Shown one piece after another: positions 1,169-23,402 of a stretch of DNA of 27,186 nucleotides. This stretch comes from a virus (taxonomy: Duplodnaviria > Heunggongvirae > Uroviricota > Caudoviricetes). Below the pieces are notes generated by a model, which was not told where the DNA came from, made no database searches, and saw only the letters and a list, made by a program, of their open reading frames with translations. The stretch's first letter is position 1. Every line of letters begins with the position of its first letter. Where the stretch lies: the IMG/VR virus record IMGVR_UViG_2537561936_000020, positions 1 to 27,186 of that record. The stretch is one strand, 5' to 3'. The translations under genes and the position numbers were made by a program.

Positions 1169-1757
1169 CATTTTCCTGAGTCTGCCTGGTTGTTTCTTCA
1201 GCCTGTATATCGCCTACAGGGTGATAACGATAAATCGTCGATATGCCGATGTCGTAAATGATCGCCAGTTGTTTCCTGTCATGACCGTTTTTAATCAGCC
1301 TCGCTATTTGCTCGTGTTGTTCTTTTGTCAACTTCGGGCGACGTCCGCCAATGCGTCCTTGTGCGCGTGCTGCTGCCAGCCCGGCCAGTGTACGCTCTAC
1401 AATTAATTCACGTTCCATTTCGGCTAAAGCCCCCATGACGTGAAAAAAGAAACGCCCCATGGGTGTTGATGTGTCAATGCTGTCCGTCAGACTACGGAAA
1501 TTAACACCTTTTTTCCGCAATTCCTCAATAAGCGTGATCAGGTGTTTCATACTTCTGCCCAGTCTGTCCAGCTTCCAGACAACCAGCGTATCTCCTTCTG
1601 ATAGCGTTCTGAGCAGTTTTTTCAATCCCGGTCTGGCTGATTTCGTTCCGCTGATTTTATCTTCAAAAATCAGTTCACATCCTGCGCAGTTCAGTGCATT
1701 GCGTTGTAAATCCGTGTTCTGGTCATTTGTTGACACACGAATATAGCCAATTTGCAT
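1158..1757 (-). CDS. Serine recombinase, DNA invertase of the Hin/Gin/Cin/Pin/Min family
   Basis: From internal Met: MQIGYIRVSTNDQNTDLQRNAL...LVVWKLDRLGRS...GRFFFHVMGALAEMERELIVERTLAGLAAARAQGR...IIYDIGISTIYR. Catalytic Ser in RVS and C-terminal HTH present. ORF-track start 1952 is an upstream extension; ATG at 1755-1757 checked in the DNA. Confidence 0.92.
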   Translation of the reverse strand: MQIGYIRVSTNDQNTDLQRNALNCAGCELIFEDKISGTKSARPGLKKLLRTLSEGDTLVVWKLDRLGRSMKHLITLIEELRKKGVNFRSLTDSIDTSTPMGRFFFHVMGALAEMERELIVERTLAGLAAARAQGRIGGRRPKLTKEQHEQIARLIKNGHDRKQLAIIYDIGISTIYRYHPVGDIQAEETTRQTQENENR

Positions 1758-1811
1758 AAAAAACATCCTTTTTGTTTCGTGAAAAATACATAGTTGGTAT
1801 AGGTAGGGATA

Positions 1812-1837
1812 AAGACGAAAACGTTGGTTTGGGGGAA
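1812..1837 (+). other. Candidate crossover site D (hix/gix-like, 12-2-12)
   Basis: AAGACGAAAACG-TT-GGTTTGGGGGAA. AAAAC(G/C)..GGTTT halves around a 2-bp core as in Hin-family sites. Lies exactly at the start of cassette 4. Confidence 0.6.
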
Positions 1838-2296
1838 GGCTCTGCGCTGCCCGTTGGTGTGCCCGTTCCATGGCCCTCAGCCACGCTGCCAACGGGGTGG
1901 CTGAAATGTAACGGCGCAGCATTTTCTTCTGAAATGTACCCCAATCTGGCAAAGGCCTACCCCACCAATAAATTACCGGATTTACGGGGCGAATTTATTC
2001 GCGGCTGGGATGACGGACGGGGCGTTGATAATGGGCGCAACCTACTGTCTGCACAGTCTGACGCTATTCAGAATATAGTTGGCACTTTTGGGCGTACTCA
2101 GCTTTTTAAAGATGCGCTTAATTCAGGACCATTTAGTCAAACTGACTCTATATTATCAGTAGGCTTACAACCAACTGAGATCATTGAAGGATATGGTGCT
2201 TCTGTATGGACATTCGACGCCTCTCGCTCAGTTCGCACAGCATCTGAAACACGCCCCCATAACATTGCGTTTAATTACATCGTAAGGGCAGCATGA
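1826..2296 (+). CDS. Silent alternative tail-fibre C-terminal cassette 4 (tail-collar-type domain)
   Basis: Shares the conserved start GEGSALPVGVPVPWP..GWLKCNGAAFSSEMYP..LPDLRGEFIRGWDDGRGVD and conserved end ETRPHNIAFNYIVRAA with the H C-terminus; central part is unique. No start codon of its own; ORF-track ATG at 1772 is probably fortuitous. Confidence 0.7.
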   Translation, partial: GLGEGSALPVGVPVPWPSATLPTGWLKCNGAAFSSEMYPNLAKAYPTNKLPDLRGEFIRGWDDGRGVDNGRNLLSAQSDAIQNIVGTFGRTQLFKDALNSGPFSQTDSILSVGLQPTEIIEGYGASVWTFDASRSVRTASETRPHNIAFNYIVRAA

Positions 2297-2315
2297 AAAC
2301 GTTGGTTTAGGAGAA
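2290..2315 (+). other. Candidate crossover site C (hix/gix-like)
   Basis: AGCATGAAAACG-TT-GGTTTAGGAGAA. Spans the stop of cassette 4 and the start of cassette 3. Confidence 0.6.
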
Positions 2316-2783
2316 GGCTCTGCACTGCCCGTTGGTGTGCCCGTTCCGTGGCCCTTAGCAACACCACCAACGGGCTGGCTGAAATGTAACGGTGCAGCAT
2401 TTTCTTCTGAAATGTACCCCAATCTGGCAAAAGCCTACCCCACCAATAAATTACCGGATTTACGGGGCGAATTTATTCGTGGCTGGGATGATGGGCGAGG
2501 AATTGATGCAGCACGCGCTTTATTGAGCATTCAAACCGGGATGTTGGAAAAACACCGCCATATTGTTGTAGCTAACGATGGATATGACACAAAGGATGAA
2601 TGGGAGTTGGCCACGATTTTCAAAAAAACATATACACAAGGCAGGGGGCTTGATGCCACAAATACAGGAGGGAGTTTGATTCCATCACCAACGCTTCATT
2701 CACGAGGAAGTATTGGTAACACAGGTGGTAGTGAAACCCGCCCCCGCAATATTGCATTTAACTATATCGTGAGGGCGGCTTAG
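2304..2783 (+). CDS. Silent alternative tail-fibre C-terminal cassette 3
   Basis: Same conserved N- and C-terminal blocks (…ETRPRNIAFNYIVRAA*) with a unique middle. Begins at the crossover core with no start codon of its own. Confidence 0.7.
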   Translation, partial: GLGEGSALPVGVPVPWPLATPPTGWLKCNGAAFSSEMYPNLAKAYPTNKLPDLRGEFIRGWDDGRGIDAARALLSIQTGMLEKHRHIVVANDGYDTKDEWELATIFKKTYTQGRGLDATNTGGSLIPSPTLHSRGSIGNTGGSETRPRNIAFNYIVRAA

Positions 2784-2789
2784 TTATAT

Positions 2790-3401
2790 TCAACTGGCTG
2801 ATGCCAGTGGTATTCCCGGCAAGTTGATATCTGGTGCCATGTTTATATCCATTGCGTTCAGCGCGTCTATATAATCCAGCACGGCATTAAGCCGGGTGGT
2901 TTCTGCCTGCGTCAACTTCCGCCCGGCCCGCAACTTCAACTGAATCAGACTTATGGAATCCATTGCCGCATCAGCCAGTGACTGGCGCTTGGTTTCTGCC
3001 GCTTCTACTGCGGCACTATGTTGTGCCTCAGTATCTGTCACCCATTTTTCACCATCCCATTTATCGTATGGTGTTGACGGGGAGATAGTGGTTGTATTTT
3101 TCGGGTAGTCACCTAGCGTCGTGATTTCTTCGGTGTTTCCCGTGTCAGTGTTATAGACGGTTTCACCACGATGATCTGGCGTATACTCCCATGAATTTAA
3201 ATTCTCCGAACGGCGGATAGCATAGCCCGCTTTATGTGCGCCCGGGGCATCTAAACAGGAATTTGCCGGAATACCGACACCCGCAGCAAGATATTCAGTT
3301 GATTCGGAAATATATTCCCGTGTCTCACCATCATAGTTATAAACGACGATGTTTCCTGCCTGTACGGCAATAAGGTCATCATTTAATATCGCGTTATTCA
3401 T
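2790..3401 (-). CDS. tfa: Tail fibre assembly chaperone (Tfa / P2 gpG-like)
   Basis: 203 aa. GVGIPANS...EYTPDHRGETVYNTDTG...YDKWDGEKWVTDTEAQ and a C-terminal helical region typical of lambda Tfa / P2 G family. ATG overlaps the TAA of cassette 2 (TAATG). Confidence 0.8.
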   Translation of the reverse strand: MNNAILNDDLIAVQAGNIVVYNYDGETREYISESTEYLAAGVGIPANSCLDAPGAHKAGYAIRRSENLNSWEYTPDHRGETVYNTDTGNTEEITTLGDYPKNTTTISPSTPYDKWDGEKWVTDTEAQHSAAVEAAETKRQSLADAAMDSISLIQLKLRAGRKLTQAETTRLNAVLDYIDALNAMDINMAPDINLPGIPLASAS

Positions 3402-3859
3402 TATGCGGTTCTCACAATATAATTGAAGGCAATATTGCGTGGGCGGGTTTCATTCCCCTCTGAGGATTCCGTTCTGTATTGACTGGTAAATCTACCGTTA
3501 ATTGCACCTTGCCGGACGGCGTTATCTGTCGACAACAGACTATCCCCGCCTTTGTCATTTGGCACCAGTACCGTGTTATCCCACGCATCCCATGACCGAA
3601 TATTATGATAATGACTTCCTGTTAACCACCCCTGCATGCTTAAGATGACCCTTCCGGCATCCACCCCGCGCCCATCATCCCAGCCACGGATAAATTCACC
3701 GCGTAAGTCTGGTAATTTATTGGTGGGGTAAGCCATTGCCAGTCTGGGATACATTTCAGAAGAAAATGCTGCGCCGTTACATTTCAGCCACCCCGTTGGC
3801 GGCGTGGCTGAGGGCCATGGAACAGGTACACCAACGGGCAGTGCAGAGCCTTCCCCCAA
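3401..3859 (-). CDS. Silent alternative tail-fibre C-terminal cassette 2
   Basis: Conserved N and C blocks (…NIAFNYIVRTA*). The ORF-track start is TTG within the crossover site; translationally coupled to tfa. Confidence 0.7.
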   Translation of the reverse strand: MGEGSALPVGVPVPWPSATPPTGWLKCNGAAFSSEMYPRLAMAYPTNKLPDLRGEFIRGWDDGRGVDAGRVILSMQGWLTGSHYHNIRSWDAWDNTVLVPNDKGGDSLLSTDNAVRQGAINGRFTSQYRTESSEGNETRPRNIAFNYIVRTA

Positions 3860-6118: not shown

Positions 6119-7007
6119 TGCGTCCACCTTCGCTGATGGTGAATGACTCACAGCGCGCCGCCTGTATGTCGCTGATGGTCATATTCTGTGTGGGTTCGAT
6201 TATCTCCACGCGTTGCACACCGTGCACATGCAGTGCGGCAGCAATGGCGGACAACGCCACGTCCTGACCGATAAGCCCCTGCTCAGCCAGCCACTTCCTG
6301 AACGACGATTCAGCCGCGGCCAGAATAGGTTCGGATTCCGGGCCGGGGTAAAAGTACAGTTTTGCATTCAGCCGCCATGTCACGATTCTGGCGCTCTGTA
6401 CGGTCAGGCGGTCGGCCACCGGGCGGGTATCCTCTGCATTCAGAACGGCGCGAACGGTATTAAGCAACGCCTCCGTTGCTGTGCCGTCGCCTTCAGTGGA
6501 CAGAATGGAAACCGTCACATTTGCCGGAGACGGACTGATAGCCCGCGCATCACGCACCAGACCGCTGGCGCTGCGTGCAAAATACTCGTATGCACCTGAC
6601 GGGCCAGCAACACTCAGGCCGTCGTACGCCCGCTGCGCCCGCAGTCTCAGCGAGGTGTCGCTCTCCATCACCGCGTCGGTGGTATCCGTTGCCGGAGTGA
6701 TAACCAGGCGTTTTGTGTTCATATTGCCCGCGAGGTTGTCCAGGTCTGTCCCGGCGCTGTGGCTTAACATGCAGGCGCGTGCCCCCTCGTTAACCCGCTG
6801 GCGTAACAGCATTTCACGAAACGACATGGTTTGAGCGATAACGTTAAGGGGTTCCGATTCCAGCTCCAGCGCGGCGGAAACGGCTTCACGCTGTTCGGCG
6901 GGATAAGCCGCAATCATCATGGCCTTTGTGTCAGCCAGAATTGCCTCAAAGTCAGGCTCCGCGATGATGGCGGGTTCCGGTAACTGGGAAAGGTCAACGG
7001 CAGGCAT
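6111..7007 (-). CDS. J: Baseplate assembly protein J
   Basis: 298 aa. P2 gpJ-like sequence and position between W and I. Confidence 0.85.
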   Translation of the reverse strand: MPAVDLSQLPEPAIIAEPDFEAILADTKAMMIAAYPAEQREAVSAALELESEPLNVIAQTMSFREMLLRQRVNEGARACMLSHSAGTDLDNLAGNMNTKRLVITPATDTTDAVMESDTSLRLRAQRAYDGLSVAGPSGAYEYFARSASGLVRDARAISPSPANVTVSILSTEGDGTATEALLNTVRAVLNAEDTRPVADRLTVQSARIVTWRLNAKLYFYPGPESEPILAAAESSFRKWLAEQGLIGQDVALSAIAAALHVHGVQRVEIIEPTQNMTISDIQAARCESFTISEGGRNE

Positions 7008-11929: not shown

Positions 11930-12982
11930 TTAGCTGTCGGCGAACTTCAGGCCAGTGACCATCGCGCACTTGCCATAGTCTTCAACGACATAAGCGTCAT
12001 TGATGGACTGGTAGGTGGCGATGCGGTTGTATTCCGGCTCGTCTTTCATCAGGCGACGCATTGAACCTTTCTGCCAGTAAATCGACAGGTTGTTGAACGA
12101 GGTGATCAGCATCGTTGCATCCGGGAAGAACGGCGCAAGGAACACGCCCAGCCCGCCAATGGTGCGCGATGACAGGATGAGCTGCCCGGCAAGTAATTCC
12201 GCATTGGGATTCTGGCCGCTGATGCTGTTCAGCACGGGCAGACGCAGCGAGTTAAACAGATTGCGCCCCATAATCACCACGAGGTCGTCAGCTTCCTTGT
12301 GCCATTCATCCAGCAGGGATGAACGCGCGTCCTGTACCAGTGCATCAGCGTTCGCATACTTACCCGCGTGCGCCACGGTGTTGTCCATGTTGCGGGAGGT
12401 CAGCGTCACGTCATTCATAACGCGTTCGCTGGCGTCGGTTCTGATGTGCTCCAGCCATCCCACGTTAACGTCCTGAAGCAGCTTGTTGGTGCTGAAGTTG
12501 GACTCATCCGCGTGTGACGTGCCGTTAAAGCCGATCATGATGCGGTCAAGCGCCACCTGTCGGGCAATCTGTGCGCTGATGCGGGTCTGAAAATCAGGGT
12601 GTGCCGACCAGGCATCAAGCTGCGGATACGAAATAAACGTGTCGTAGTTCACCTGTTCGCACTGGTATTTGCGGTTTTTCAGATCAACCACGTTATTCGG
12701 GTTACGGCGTTTTGTGCCGTCATAACTGGTATTCGTGCGTGCAATTGGCCCGGTGGTGTCCAGGAGGATTTTTTCGCCTTTCTGGTCGGTCACGCCGATC
12801 ACGTTAATTCTTTTTGTAAATTCGGTGCTTTCCTTTGAGGCGTTTTCAAAACGCTGCTGTACCGAGGGTTCCACGGTAAATCGCGATACCAGTGCGGAAA
12901 CCGGGATATTGTTAAGCGACGCCTGCTGCGCCATATAGCAACCCAGCTTGTTGCGGGCATTATCTGACATCACCAGATTCAT
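11930..12982 (-). CDS. N: Major capsid protein N
   Basis: 350 aa. FTVEPS…GFNG…DPDLVVIMGR…NLSIYWQ…VVEDY pattern of P2 gpN. Confidence 0.9.
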   Translation of the reverse strand: MNLVMSDNARNKLGCYMAQQASLNNIPVSALVSRFTVEPSVQQRFENASKESTEFTKRINVIGVTDQKGEKILLDTTGPIARTNTSYDGTKRRNPNNVVDLKNRKYQCEQVNYDTFISYPQLDAWSAHPDFQTRISAQIARQVALDRIMIGFNGTSHADESNFSTNKLLQDVNVGWLEHIRTDASERVMNDVTLTSRNMDNTVAHAGKYANADALVQDARSSLLDEWHKEADDLVVIMGRNLFNSLRLPVLNSISGQNPNAELLAGQLILSSRTIGGLGVFLAPFFPDATMLITSFNNLSIYWQKGSMRRLMKDEPEYNRIATYQSINDAYVVEDYGKCAMVTGLKFADS

Positions 12983-13005: not shown

Positions 13006-13837
13006 TCAGAAGTCAGCCAGCTGGTCGGAGGCTGCGCCCGTTGCGGTGAACCGGTTCTGCGGATCGCCGTCCTGCGTGCGCAGTTTTTCCTTCAGTGCTG
13101 TCAGCTCTGTGGTCAGCGAAGTGATTTTCTGGCTGTCCTGCTGATGGCGGGTTTCCAGTGCATTAAAACGGTCGATAATGTCGGCCTGTGATGTTGCGAC
13201 ACCTTCCAGCGCTTCCTGAATACGGGAGAAACTGGCGTCATCCGCTTTGCGGCCACGGCCAATAATCCCCATTACGCGGTTAAACCACTGGGTGCCTTCT
13301 TCCTGACGTTGTTCGGTGAGTTCGATAAGTTCTGACTCCATAGCGGCGGTAAACATCGCCACGTCTCCCTGCTGACAGTTGAATGTCATCAGCGCCTGAC
13401 GTTGCTGTGCCGTGAATTTCAGGCGCTCAGTGCCCAGGCTTGCCGGGGTGTCGGTCATCGCCAGCCCGACCAGATAGGCGCGCCCGTTAACGGAGAACTG
13501 CGGGTGCAGTTCGATACTGGAATAGATTTTCTTGCCATCGACAAGCAGCATCATGCGAGCGGTCGGCTCAATTTCGGCATACAGCGCAGTACGGCCGGCC
13601 AGCGGACCATCCGTAATGTCTTCCGTACTCAACCCCACAACATCGCCCATAGCGGAAAACTCGCTGCCGGGCATGGCGACAGATGTGCTCAATATTCACA
13701 CGTGCACCATAAACGGACGGGTTATAACTGGTGGCGGCAGCTTTCAGCATGTCGCCGTTGATTTCGCGCCCGTCTGCCGTCACACCGGAGACAGCCACGC
13801 GAAACTTTTTGCGGGATGTCTTTTTTTCATTAGTCAT
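13006..13837 (-). CDS. O: Capsid scaffold protein O, apparently frameshifted near 13667-13672
   Basis: N-terminal part (MTNEKK…PSVYGARVNIEH) is in the frame of ORF 13568..13870; the remainder (PGSEFSAMGDVVGL…YLVGLAMTDTPASLGTE) is in the frame of ORF 13006..13692. Both halves align to P2 gpO. Confidence 0.6.
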
Positions 13838-13991: not shown

Positions 13992-15743
13992 ATGATTCAG
14001 GACGCTTTTGTGCGCCAGCGTGCGCGGCAACTTTACTGGCAGGGTTATCCGCCCGCAGAAATATCACGTCTGATGGGAATAAACCCGAACACGATTTATG
14101 CGTGGAAAAAACGCGACCAGTGGGATGAAACACCACCCGTGCAGCGTGTCACGCAGTCCATCGATGCGCGCCTCATCCAGCTTACTGAAAAACAGAATAA
14201 AACAGGTGGTGACTTTAAGGAAATAGACCTGCTGACCCGGCAGCTTAAAAAACTGCATGATGGCCAGCCGGATGCGACGGTCACAGGAAAGAAAGGCCGG
14301 GCGAAAAAACTCAAAAATCATTTCACGCCGGAACAGATTGCCGCACTGCGGGAAAAAATCATCAGCAGGCTGGAGTGGCATCAGCGGGGCTGGTTTGACT
14401 CTCTGACCCTTTGCAGGGAAGCCGGGATACGTAACAGGATGATCCTGAAATCCCGACAGATTGGGGCGACCTGGTATTTTGCACAGGAAGCACTGCTGAT
14501 GGCACTGCGTGACGATGTGGCACAACCTTACCAGCGTAACCAGATTTTTTTGTCTGCGTCGCGTCGTCAGGCGTTCCAGTTTAAAAGCATTATTCAGAAG
14601 GCCGCGGCTGAAGTTGATGTGGAGCTGAAAGGGGGCGATAAAATCATCCTCTCCAACGGTGCAGAGCTGCATTTTCTTGGTACTTCTGCTGCGACGGCAC
14701 AGTCCTACACGGGCAATTTTTATTTTGATGAATTTTTCTGGGTCAGTCGCTTTGCTGAACTGCGCAAGGTGGCTGGCGCTATGGCAACCCTCAGCGGACT
14801 GCGGCGCACCTACTTCTCCACGCCATCCACCGAAACGCACGAGGCATACGCCTACTGGAACGGCGACCGCTGGAACGAGAAAAAGGCCTCGCATAAACGC
14901 CAGCGTTTTTCTGTGGACTGGAAAACGCTGCATAACGGACTTATCTGCCCTGACCGGACATGGCGGCAGATTGTCACGCTGGAAGATGTGGTTAATCACG
15001 GCTGGAAACACACCGATATTGACGAAATCCGCGATGAAAACACCGAAGACGAGTTCCGCAATCTCTATATGTGTGAGTTTGTCCGCGAAGGGGAATCGGC
15101 ATTTAACCTGAATATCCTGATTGGCTGCGGTGTTGACGGATACGACGACTGGAAAGACTGGAAACCTTTTGCTCCCCGCCCGATGGGAAATCGTCCGGTA
15201 TGGATTGGGTATGACGCAAACGGCAGCAGTGGCAACGGCGACAGCGGCGCTGTGTCCGTGGTGGTTCCTCCGGCTGTTCCTGGTGGCCGTTTTCGAACGG
15301 TGGAGACGCGACGCGTTCAGGGGCTGGAGTTTGAAGAACAGGCCAGAGTCATTGAAGAGTTCACGTGTCGCTACAACGTGGAACACATCGGCATTGATGT
15401 GACGGGCGGGAACGGGGAGGCTGTTTATCAGATAGTGAAGCGGTTTTTCCCTGCTGCTATTCCGTACACCTTCACGCTGTCATCCAAACGGTCGCTGGTA
15501 CTGAAAATGCTGCAAATAATGCGTGCCGGACGGTGGGAATACGATCGCGCCGAACGCGAGCTGGTCGCGGCCTTTAACGCCGTGCGTAAGGTGAAAACAC
15601 CGGGCGGCTTTATCACTTACGAAACGGACCGCGCGAGGGGGATCAGCCACGGTGACCTTGCGTGGGCAACCATGCTTGCTGTCATTAACGAACCGATTGG
15701 CGGCGAAGGAGAAAACGAGCGTTTCACGGTTATGGAGTTCTGA
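13992..15743 (+). CDS. P: Terminase ATPase (large) subunit P
   Basis: 583 aa, P2 gpP-like throughout. Confidence 0.9.
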   Translation: MIQDAFVRQRARQLYWQGYPPAEISRLMGINPNTIYAWKKRDQWDETPPVQRVTQSIDARLIQLTEKQNKTGGDFKEIDLLTRQLKKLHDGQPDATVTGKKGRAKKLKNHFTPEQIAALREKIISRLEWHQRGWFDSLTLCREAGIRNRMILKSRQIGATWYFAQEALLMALRDDVAQPYQRNQIFLSASRRQAFQFKSIIQKAAAEVDVELKGGDKIILSNGAELHFLGTSAATAQSYTGNFYFDEFFWVSRFAELRKVAGAMATLSGLRRTYFSTPSTETHEAYAYWNGDRWNEKKASHKRQRFSVDWKTLHNGLICPDRTWRQIVTLEDVVNHGWKHTDIDEIRDENTEDEFRNLYMCEFVREGESAFNLNILIGCGVDGYDDWKDWKPFAPRPMGNRPVWIGYDANGSSGNGDSGAVSVVVPPAVPGGRFRTVETRRVQGLEFEEQARVIEEFTCRYNVEHIGIDVTGGNGEAVYQIVKRFFPAAIPYTFTLSSKRSLVLKMLQIMRAGRWEYDRAERELVAAFNAVRKVKTPGGFITYETDRARGISHGDLAWATMLAVINEPIGGEGENERFTVMEF

Positions 15744-17909: not shown

Positions 17910-18221
17910 TTACTCAGGAAATAACGCCCGGATATTCCCAGCCATCTGGCTGGTTATCTTAGCCACTGGTGCAGACTGTGCTTCAAACTTTTTTGAGCTG
18001 ATTTGTGTCACAGGTAACATCTCATCATCAGCCCATGCGGCCAGTCGGTAAGCCTCTGCCGGATTCGTCTTCAGAAGTGCCAGCCCGGCCAGAAAAGCCA
18101 CGCGTTGGCCGCTTTTGCGGGCTTCTGGTGTAAGGCTGTCCAGCCAGGCGCATGCTTCTCCTTCGTTCTTGACGGCGGCGGGCTTCAGATAGAAACTTAT
18201 CCGTCTGGTTGGTGTCGTCAT
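17910..18221 (-). CDS. parR: ParR-like centromere-binding protein
   Basis: 103 aa from MTTPTRRISFYLKPAAV…AWLDSLTPEARKSGQRVAFLAGLAL, recalling the R1 ParR N-terminus. AAGGAG lies 8 nt upstream, inside the parM 3' end. ORF-track start 18356 rejected. Confidence 0.7.
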   Translation of the reverse strand: MTTPTRRISFYLKPAAVKNEGEACAWLDSLTPEARKSGQRVAFLAGLALLKTNPAEAYRLAAWADDEMLPVTQISSKKFEAQSAPVAKITSQMAGNIRALFPE

Positions 18222-18225
18222 TGGT

Positions 18226-19185
18226 TTACTCCTTGTCCATTGCGTACAGCCCATTAACCAGAGCAAACTGTGGCACCCCGTCCGCGATGAAAGTCGCATT
18301 AACTCCGCAGGCTTCGCGGATAGCGGGTGCCACAATCTCCGCCCCGCCACCGACAACCATCACCCGCCCGTAACCCGAAAAAACCGCCAGCGCGCGGATC
18401 ACGCGTTGTTTCAGTGTTTCTTCCTTTTCACGAATAACCGCCATCAGGCTGGCGTAATGCGCGTCATTGTGGATGTGCTGGCGCAGCCAGGCTTCATCAT
18501 GGCGATGTTCGATAATGGTATTGGCGATGTGGTGACTGGTGCGCATACCGTTAGTGGCCATCACCGACAGTACGGCATCGGCCATAAGAGAAACGCCTAC
18601 GTGTGGATCGCAAAACACCTGGCTGATACCTGCCAGTTGCCCCTGAACCTTTGCCACATCCAGCGTGGTTCCGCCCAAATCCACAATCAGCAGGGATTCA
18701 AACGGACTCATGTCAGCCAGTGCTTTAAAGCCAGCCGGAATGGATTCAGGCATAACCCGTACGTTACGGATAGTGAATGCTTCGCCGTTCTGGTACTCCA
18801 CCGGGCGCATGACGTTCGCTTTTTTGCGGTTGATGTTGGCCATGTCCGGCTGTGCGTTTGTGTCGAAATATTCGCTCAGTGGCAGGGTAACAACCACATC
18901 CACTTCCTGTGGCGTGATGTCTGATTTGACCAGCGCGTGATGAATGGCAATGACATTCACATCGCTGTACTGGTATTGCGTGTCGGTCGTCTGGACAAAG
19001 CGATCGCTGACCGGATCAAAACCATAGCGCACGCCATCAAGCATGTAGTTAGCAGGCTGCGAGCCACCGAACGGCGCAGACCATTCCGACTTGAAGCTGT
19101 TCGGGCTGATGGCGTTGCGGCGTTCGCCGTTCTCAGTCCATGCCAGCTTGATGTTGGTGGAGCCGTCGTCGATGTAAATTTTCAT
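18226..19185 (-). CDS. parM: ParM/StbA-like actin-type segregation ATPase
   Basis: 319 aa. MKIYIDDGSTNIKLAW…ISPNSFK…QYSDVNVIAIHHAL…EVDVVVTLPL…VVGGGAEI, closely following the R1 ParM pattern as recalled. Confidence 0.85.
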   Translation of the reverse strand: MKIYIDDGSTNIKLAWTENGERRNAISPNSFKSEWSAPFGGSQPANYMLDGVRYGFDPVSDRFVQTTDTQYQYSDVNVIAIHHALVKSDITPQEVDVVVTLPLSEYFDTNAQPDMANINRKKANVMRPVEYQNGEAFTIRNVRVMPESIPAGFKALADMSPFESLLIVDLGGTTLDVAKVQGQLAGISQVFCDPHVGVSLMADAVLSVMATNGMRTSHHIANTIIEHRHDEAWLRQHIHNDAHYASLMAVIREKEETLKQRVIRALAVFSGYGRVMVVGGGAEIVAPAIREACGVNATFIADGVPQFALVNGLYAMDKE

Positions 19186-22087: not shown

Positions 22088-22473
22088 GGCTGGTATCCCG
22101 TCACGCGCTGCCACTCCTGCGAGAAGATGGCGGAAAGGCGGTTAAATTCAGCGGTGTATTCACTCAGCGAGGCACACCCGCCAGCAGTGCGATGCGCCAG
22201 CATTGCCGCGAATACGGAGGCCGGGGAGTCGTAATACGCCAGCAGTGATTCGCCGTGTGGTGTCAGGCAGTGCAACGCCAGCCCGTGTGGTGTGAAGTCC
22301 ACGCGGTAGCAGTCGTCTACTGTGAAATAAAGGGTGTCCGCATTCTCCGGTTTTGTGGTGCGTGCTCTGTTGTCACGACCACGGATGTAGAGATCAAATA
22401 ATCCCTGAAGAATGGGAGCCAGACGGGTGTCCTGTGTGCGCACCCATCTTGTGAAGTCATGAGCGTCAATCAT
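22084..22473 (-). CDS. Hypothetical early protein
   Basis: 129 aa ORF, translationally coupled to A. No recognisable motif. Confidence 0.55.
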   Translation of the reverse strand: MIDAHDFTRWVRTQDTRLAPILQGLFDLYIRGRDNRARTTKPENADTLYFTVDDCYRVDFTPHGLALHCLTPHGESLLAYYDSPASVFAAMLAHRTAGGCASLSEYTAEFNRLSAIFSQEWQRVTGYQP

Positions 22474-22545
22474 GCTGCAATTCTCTTTACTACAGATGTG
22501 CGAAGGCCTCCCGCCGCAAGGTGCAGGAAAGGCCTGGAACAGGAA

Positions 22546-22776
22546 TTAATGGAGTTTGTTTTGCTGCTGAAAGAGCTGCTGAAGCTCGCGCAGATCATCC
22601 GCCAGATAGCTGAAAACAGCGGATGAATAGAGGTTTGAAAGTTCGCAGCTACGCTCATGCAGCATATTGATGTGCATGATTTTAGCGACGCGGAATGCGC
22701 GGGAAAGTCTGCGGTTGATTTCAGTCTGGATGTGACGACGCTCCGCGATAGCGCGGTGCTGTTTGCGGTTTGCCAT
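22546..22776 (-). CDS. Hypothetical small basic protein
   Basis: 76 aa, protein-like composition; GAAGAGG 9 nt upstream of the ATG. Overlaps the long ORF 22470..23402 in another frame. Confidence 0.45.
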   Translation of the reverse strand: MANRKQHRAIAERRHIQTEINRRLSRAFRVAKIMHINMLHERSCELSNLYSSAVFSYLADDLRELQQLFQQQNKLH

Positions 22777-22958
22777 GGTGTTTGGCCTCTTCGTTTGTGA
22801 GTTTTTGGATACTCACCAACCAGAGTTGAGAATCTCGGGGTGGCGAGACGTACGGGGTTCTCAACACCGGCAAACGAAGAAACCGGCCCGACCGAAGTCG
22901 GCCCCGTACGCCCCACCATAATTCGTGTGCGAAAAAGACGTGGCAATACAGTACGCAC

Positions 22959-22979
22959 AAAAAAACCGCTGGCGCGGTT
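22959..22979 (-). terminator. Rho-independent terminator inside the early operon
   Basis: On the - strand AACCGC-GCCA-GCGGTT followed by TTTTTTT. Confidence 0.55.
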
Positions 22980-23089
22980 GTGCGCTTCGTTTGTCAGCAG
23001 GTTGAGAATCCCGGCACCCGTTTTATGAGGTGCAGCAGAAATGTAACCTGACTGATTGCGGCATGGCAAGCGGTTTTTTTGTGTGTGCA

Positions 23090-23402
23090 TGCTCTGATTT
23101 CTTACTGGTTCAGAAAAAAAATCAAAAACCTTGTCAATGCGTTGCAACAGCTCTTGCTGTATTGCTTCCGGCGTTTCCGGTTCGCCTGGCGCCTCCAATG
23201 TCGCGCAGAAATCAGCGATTTCATGATGGAGCGTCAGGCGAATGGCAGGAGCCGTGGTTCTGGCGTGCTCCAGCTCATCCAGCAATGCCAGCACCGCAGA
23301 CGGCGAGAGCATTGCGCGAAATGCCAGTAATTTTTGAGGTGTTGCCATTCGTTGCAGGGCAAATGCCAGTTCGCGTAGCTTCTGGTGGTTGATGGTGCTC
23401 AT
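23090..23402 (-). CDS. Hypothetical early protein (3' boundary uncertain)
   Basis: ATGA overlap with the upstream gene. First ~100 aa look protein-like; the ORF stays open to 22470 through a hairpin-rich segment of atypical composition. Confidence 0.4.

Follow-up and report, generated by a model that had tools for sequence, protein, structure and literature searches.

The gene for gpO, the capsid scaffold and maturation protease of a P2-like prophage, is broken by a compound lesion of three small deletions (-1, -1 and -3 nt), which lies inside a mosaic of two natural O alleles whose two junctions were found in no other sequence searched. A lesion that is compound and is placed in a unique mosaic leaves a real choice between two explanations, a recombination scar and a chimeric consensus. 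The first is favoured here, with a probability of roughly one half: judged from sequence, the lesion would be the scar of in-cell recombination between two diverged natural alleles, and O would be a pseudogene.

The window, i.e., the whole stretch of DNA analysed (27,186 nt), corresponds to the first 27,186 nt of the draft contig APYJ01000168.1 (assembly GCA_000357145.2), as is shown by ENC31263.1, a protein encoded in gene O, which has identical coordinates on the contig and in the window. It holds a P2-like Escherichia coli prophage of the P88 type (Peduoviridae; Xuanwuvirus/Gemsvirus relatives). Many E. coli prophages share 95-98.6% identity with it over its whole length, and in the relatives examined the element adjoins pheL/pheA. 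The first gene of the window is that of the tape measure, T, truncated by the contig end so that only its C-terminal part (1-630) is left, and the last position, 27186, is that of the integrase stop. The genes of the sheath and tube, E/E', and the N-terminal part of T fall beyond the contig end; the break inside T suggests that a repeated, related prophage is present in the same genome. Gene O is located between the major capsid gene N (11930-12982, minus strand) and the divergent gene of the terminase large subunit, P (13992-15743, plus strand), as in P2-like phages. Among the 26 prophage genes tested, O is the sole broken one, and the remaining 25 are full length and in a single frame. This agrees with the first-pass annotation, made from the sequence letters, as far as the intactness of the other genes is concerned. 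The same annotation described an otherwise complete prophage, but completeness cannot be claimed for a window that starts inside T.

Several other features of the prophage were observed. A plasmid-type partition module (17913-19185, minus strand) lies between the portal gene and the replication gene A and encodes a ParM/StbA protein of 319 aa and a Plasmid_stab_B/ParR-like protein of 103 aa; P88-like relatives share this arrangement. The minus-strand gene of a DNA invertase (1176-1757) adjoins several alternative cassettes for tail fibres and tail-fibre assembly, and the whole region, 1176-3859, looks like an invertible host-range segment; it is the part least conserved with respect to relatives (78-96% identity). 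The 310-aa ORF at 22470-23402 (minus strand), without a Pfam match, is one gene in the public record. In the matching stretch of NZ_CM151354.1, where all the 200-nt bins compared show 100% identity, the PGAP annotation instead has a "derepression protein" of 76 aa together with a pseudogene of the "ash family".

The disrupted gene O (13006-13837, minus strand, with the start codon as annotated in homologues) has 832 nt, compared with the 837 nt of the intact gene; all intact homologues fetched are single 837-nt CDSs encoding 278 aa. When an intact 278-aa gpO was used as a tblastn query, two HSPs in different frames were obtained, one for residues 1-53 (13837-13679) and the other for residues 56-278 (13674-13009). 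The Pfam family PF05929 (Phage_GPO) matches the upstream ORF over profile positions 2-58 (60.9 bits) and the downstream ORF over positions 47-267 (220.7 bits), and the conceptually repaired protein matches positions 2-267 of 268 (E = 3.8e-87; 292.7 bits with a cut-off of 33.6), which places it in the family. The identification of the gene as gpO of a P2-like prophage, and the claim that its homologue is split across frames, are borne out by these data and by the comparison with homologues. The alignment with homologues, named in the first-pass annotation as a way of checking the split, did not restore a single frame, and since the split is seen in direct homologue comparison, chance is not at issue. 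In place of the single uninterrupted ORF of about 278-289 aa with protease and scaffold parts, there are two frames and a 13-nt stretch in the third.

Three-frame translation set against homologues shows that gene O traverses all three frames. The 5' part (13682-13837) is in the original frame and encodes M1 to I52 (...N-I-E-H-I). It is followed by 13 nt, TGTCGCCATGCCC (13669-13681), encoding (L)SPCP, where a match to homologues exists only in the third frame. The remainder, from 13668 to 13006, is read in another frame, denoted frame B, and encodes GSEFSAMGDVV...ADF and the stop; the public record annotates a 222-aa ORF here (MPGSEF...ADF, ENC31263.1, 13006-13674). The first 1-nt deletion is that of a C after 13682 and the second that of one C or G in the ccggg run at 13667-13671, giving a net shift of -2. 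The third deletion removes 3 nt, in frame, between 13549 and 13548. The three deletions fall within 135 nt, all of them where runs are just 1-3 bases long. One 2-nt deletion in place of the two 1-nt losses was also considered and was rejected, as the P88-derived 13-mer would then be out of register with both parents. The switch of frame had earlier been located in a C/G run at 13667-13672; one missing base does lie there, but the second is next to 13682. The earlier explanations, a single homopolymer sequencing error or a single inactivating mutation, both fail to accommodate a -1/-1/-3 lesion. By its reading frames, O as written is a pseudogene or a mis-assembled copy and not a functional member of the GPO family.

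The origin of the individual segments became apparent when the gene was placed in codon register with two allele families, the GF66.2/38M23CPO005 type (GF-type) and the P88 type. Gene nt 1-156 (13682-13837) are identical to the GF66.2/38M23 allele at 156/156 positions. Gene nt 157-308 (13535-13681) form a fine-scale mosaic (133/147), in which the sequence changes at least 11 times between the states of the GF66.2 and P88 types, and this zone holds all three deletions. It is followed by a solid P88-type tract, gene nt 309-450 (13393-13534), in which 142/142 positions are P88-type compared with 102/142 for the GF66.2 type; all the informative sites of the tract (40/40) are P88-type, and it is 100% identical to the P88, RM12581, 1190, PV15-279, and 23CRST001 alleles. 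The sequence then returns to GF-type at gene nt 451-540 (13303-13392; 90/90) and 541-837 (13006-13302; 296/297), i.e., 386/387 over the 3' part of O (13006-13392), where the linker and the C-terminal scaffolding domain are encoded in a frame other than that of the start codon. Outside the P88-type tract the allele is of the GF66.2 type, and the mosaic zone of about 150 nt forms the left border of that tract. The right edge is a sharp one-step switch at 13393/13392, with no flanking identity. Apart from one register-ambiguous codon, no private substitutions are present in O.

In the affected zone the two parent alleles differ by about 20-30%, and their codons align free of gaps. The parents were also aligned with each other at the nucleotide level under four scoring schemes. 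At the site of the 3-nt deletion, a -3 followed by a +3 was opened under all four. At the shift site, three of the schemes give optimal or co-optimal alignments with four indels (+1, -1, -1, +1), and a blastn-like scheme opens two only (-1, +1). At 6/6 of the indel columns in these alignments, the window holds the short state. The coincidence of the compensating indels between the parents with the sites of the lesion, together with the short state throughout, argues that the frameshift consists of two alleles joined out of codon register. Recombination within O is itself normal, as natural in-frame recombinants between both allele families exist, e.g., P0002. In the neighbouring gene N, the 5' third, nt 30-393 (about 12590-12953), belongs to a third allele lineage (UMNF18/STLEFF_47/phage 503458-like) with small 38M23-type patches. 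When gpN was checked for a fine-scale patchwork of the kind seen in O, block-level mosaicism only was observed, with no private substitutions or indels, and this comparison was uninformative.

The uniqueness of the arrangement was assessed with diagnostic strings, among them a 31-mer over the shift, GAGCACATCTGTCGCCATGCCCGGCAGCGAG, and the right junction, CAGCAACGTCAGGCGCTGATGACATTCAACTG; the parental strings are GAGCACATCCTGTCACCACTCCCCGGCAGCGAG (GF-type) and GAGCACTATCTCTCGCCATGCCCGTCAAGCGAA (P88-type). The exact 31-mer is absent from genomes representing species, from the viral contigs of IMG/VR, and from JGI metagenomes, and neither the string over the 3-nt deletion, nor a 30-mer from the patchwork, nor the right junction occurs in any collection in which it was sought. 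In a BLAST comparison with 5,426 complete E. coli genomes (gene O being present in about 1,080), the best identities were 94.7% for the shift region, 92.3% for the patch, and 90.6% for the right junction, and no sibling allele was seen among these genomes. Five conceptually repaired proteins (with I or Y at the first site, with the short or long N-terminus, and one with GF-type states at both deletion sites) and N-terminal fragments were looked up exactly among about 15 billion proteins, and none was found there. The best 120 protein cluster representatives are all uninterrupted gpO and display only two local states per site, YLSPCPS/ILSPLPG and ERMKQLVAD/ARMMSLLND. Among 153 billion gene positions, the 222-aa fragment occurs in one contig only, APYJ01000168.1, and the exact 350-aa gpN protein in the same one.

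The position of the break matters for the function of the protein. Chang and colleagues reportedly described, in 2009, an Asp19/His48/Ser107 catalytic triad for P2 gpO. In the window, the codons GAC (13772-13774) and CAC (13685-13687), both on the minus strand, are those which we take to match Asp19 and His48. The codon corresponding to Ser107 is AGT in IYSSIE (13516-13518, minus strand), and the S107A substitution in P2 gpO abolishes proteolysis (PMC7552001). All three codons are present, with that of Ser in a frame different from that of Asp and His, and the break falls one codon past the putative catalytic His. In P2 gpO, residues 1-141 make up an N-terminal domain that acts as the maturation protease, and residues 195-284 are the scaffold required for procapsid assembly (PMC7552001). 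Translation from the O start would be expected to yield 52 native residues and a 37-residue out-of-frame tail; Asp and His would be separated from Ser, and the C-terminal scaffold domain would not be translated from the normal start. No Shine-Dalgarno-like sequence is present in the 26 nt upstream of the 222-aa ORF (TGTGAATATTGAGCACATCTGTCGCC). Since gpO is essential for viable P2 particles (PMC7552001), the prophage, if the sequence is right, presumably could not build or mature heads unless O were provided in trans.

How might such a gene arise? The compound lesion, the parentage of the segments, and the uniqueness of the two junctions are seen directly in the comparisons; what we infer beyond these is an event in the cell, a heteroduplex mechanism, and a loss of function. 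It is proposed that a GF66.2/38M23-type O allele acted as the recipient and that a P88-type allele, brought by a co-resident or co-infecting P2-like phage, was the donor. The donor would have fully replaced gene nt 309-450 and converted nt 162-308 only patchwise, as piecemeal heteroduplex repair would predict. The alleles pair best at the nucleotide level with small compensating loops at two places, and if every loop was resolved short, the outcome would be -1 and -1 (net -2) just past the catalytic His codon and -3 downstream. The full form of this proposal, in which two P2-like phages sharing a cell underwent homeologous gene conversion, with a heteroduplex of about 25% divergence mispaired out of codon register and the looped bases excised, is put forward tentatively, at somewhat less than even odds. 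The recombination scar is favoured for the following reasons. The assembly is otherwise clean. A solid block that is patchy at one edge and sharp at the other looks like a gene-conversion tract in which a heteroduplex was repaired. The divergence of the parents, 20-30% over the affected 300 nt, should be too high for ordinary mis-overlap or cross-mapping of reads, and switches 2-20 nt apart should not be producible by a de Bruijn assembler changing paths between informative sites. Other data weigh against it. If each indel column were a coin toss, six short states out of six would have a chance of about 1/64, with no known biological bias behind such an outcome, and the right junction is sharp without flanking identity. 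The contig break inside the same prophage, 13 kb away, suggests a related repeat that could confuse an assembler, and the occurrence of the 222-aa fragment and the exact gpN each in one contig only also counts against the scar.

The best-surviving alternative is a chimera of assembly or consensus, a serious contender to which we give clearly less than an even chance. It assumes a genome with a pair of P2-like prophages whose O alleles are of the GF66.2 type and the P88 type, respectively, and an assembler or polisher that merged reads or unitigs of both across O; the real genome would then have two intact O genes. A column-by-column majority vote would produce a patchwork and drop one-allele bases at compensating gaps, giving spurious deletions; the short state at every indel column is the outcome of such a vote over two read populations. 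A chimera would also account for the lack of private substitutions and for both parents being extant with 100% identity in their tracts, and for the absence of both junctions and of an intact form of this allele everywhere else searched. About 10% of the E. coli genomes having O carry 2-3 copies of it, the record is a draft WGS of the 2013 era, and the end of the contig inside T hints at a second related prophage. However, the divergence of the parents exceeds the usual tolerance of read overlap or mapping, switches spaced 2-20 nt apart are not within reach of a de Bruijn assembler, the pure 142-nt P88 block and the one-step right junction are unlike a tied vote, and the remaining 22 kb contain no other such artefact.

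That 22 kb also bears on the quality of the assembly in general. In comparison with a 98.55%-identical relative, it contains no net frame-breaking indels; the one cluster outside O is in the baseplate gene J, where compensating +1, +1, and -2 changes at 6824-6829 with respect to NZ_CM151354.1 leave the 298-aa product in frame. No indel falls on any of the 13 long homopolymers of the window (at least 7 A/T or at least 6 G/C), among which are T7 runs in O and in P. This comparison, the 25 full-length genes, and the clean homopolymers together exclude an assembly that is prone to indels in general. Independent sequencing errors, in the form of homopolymer under-calls in a normal natural recombinant allele, are accordingly considered very improbable. 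One missing base does lie in a CCC/GG run, and the RefSeq phage 500465-2 lacks a C in the corresponding run, though that record has many split genes. Yet three separate errors would be needed within 135 nt, at runs of 1-3 bases, in a sequence in which 13 much longer homopolymers are free of stray indels; the loss of 3 nt is not a homopolymer error, and the intact allele presumed to underlie the record is absent from the 15 billion proteins and the 5,426 complete genomes.

Gradual decay, in which an in-frame recombinant allele later gained independent deletions in a cryptic prophage, appears just as improbable. Prophage genes do decay, and natural O recombinants exist, but 0/25 of the other genes are damaged, O lacks private substitutions, and the three deletions coincide with alignment-ambiguous spots of the mosaic rather than being scattered. 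Programmed ribosomal frameshifting, or a split O with separate protease and scaffold products, has a probability close to nil and was rejected: although the CCCG of TGC CCG G could in principle permit a -1 slip of tRNA-Pro and a 222-aa ORF with the scaffold domain exists, two shifts 13 nt apart would be required, inspection of the first site (CAC ATC TGT) shows no slippery heptamer there, the 222-aa ORF lacks a Shine-Dalgarno sequence, the best 120 cluster representatives are uninterrupted, and the arrangement is unique to one contig.

If the lesion is real, the prophage cannot make heads alone and is to be counted either as defective or as reliant on a second P2-like phage as helper, and the lesion offers a tidy case of recombination between diverged phage alleles that yields a frameshift. 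If the homeologous gene conversion is true, the mosaic-making recombination that drives phage evolution has here killed an essential head gene, which would show how intact prophages become defective. If the lesion is an artefact, it is a warning that draft assemblies with two related prophages can hold chimeric, falsely frameshifted genes, with the result that too many "defective prophages" would be counted. Beyond annotation, the importance is little. Gene O is a homologue of a well-known family, GPO, in a well-known prophage type and no new kind of element, and either outcome, scar or chimera, is ordinary. The only mildly interesting point is mechanistic, i.e., that a frameshift can come from joining natural alleles out of codon register.

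It is worth comparing this gene with known systems. In the records of phages 500465-2 (NC_049343, 331-1198) and 503458 (NC_049341, 331-1199), O is likewise present as two CDSs because of 1-nt losses, and in 500465-2 the missing C belongs to the same C-run as in the window. In these records, however, other genes are split as well, with the terminase in three pieces, and there is no mosaic tract, whereas the window is clean outside O; both records look generally indel-prone. With P2 gpO, a PF05929 capsid scaffolding protein that has a serine protease at its N-terminus, the window shares the match of both fragments to the family, the P/N gene order, and the positions of the triad, and it differs in that the reading frame is lost immediately past the His codon, leaving no full-length gpO by normal translation. 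Also close are the intact P88-like O genes, that of Xuanwuvirus P88 and the Gemsvirus-type allele of strains GF66.2 and 38M23CPO005, which are 837 nt long and in frame; in contrast to them, the gene in the window is a unique hybrid with -1, -1, and -3 at the left edge of its P88-type tract.
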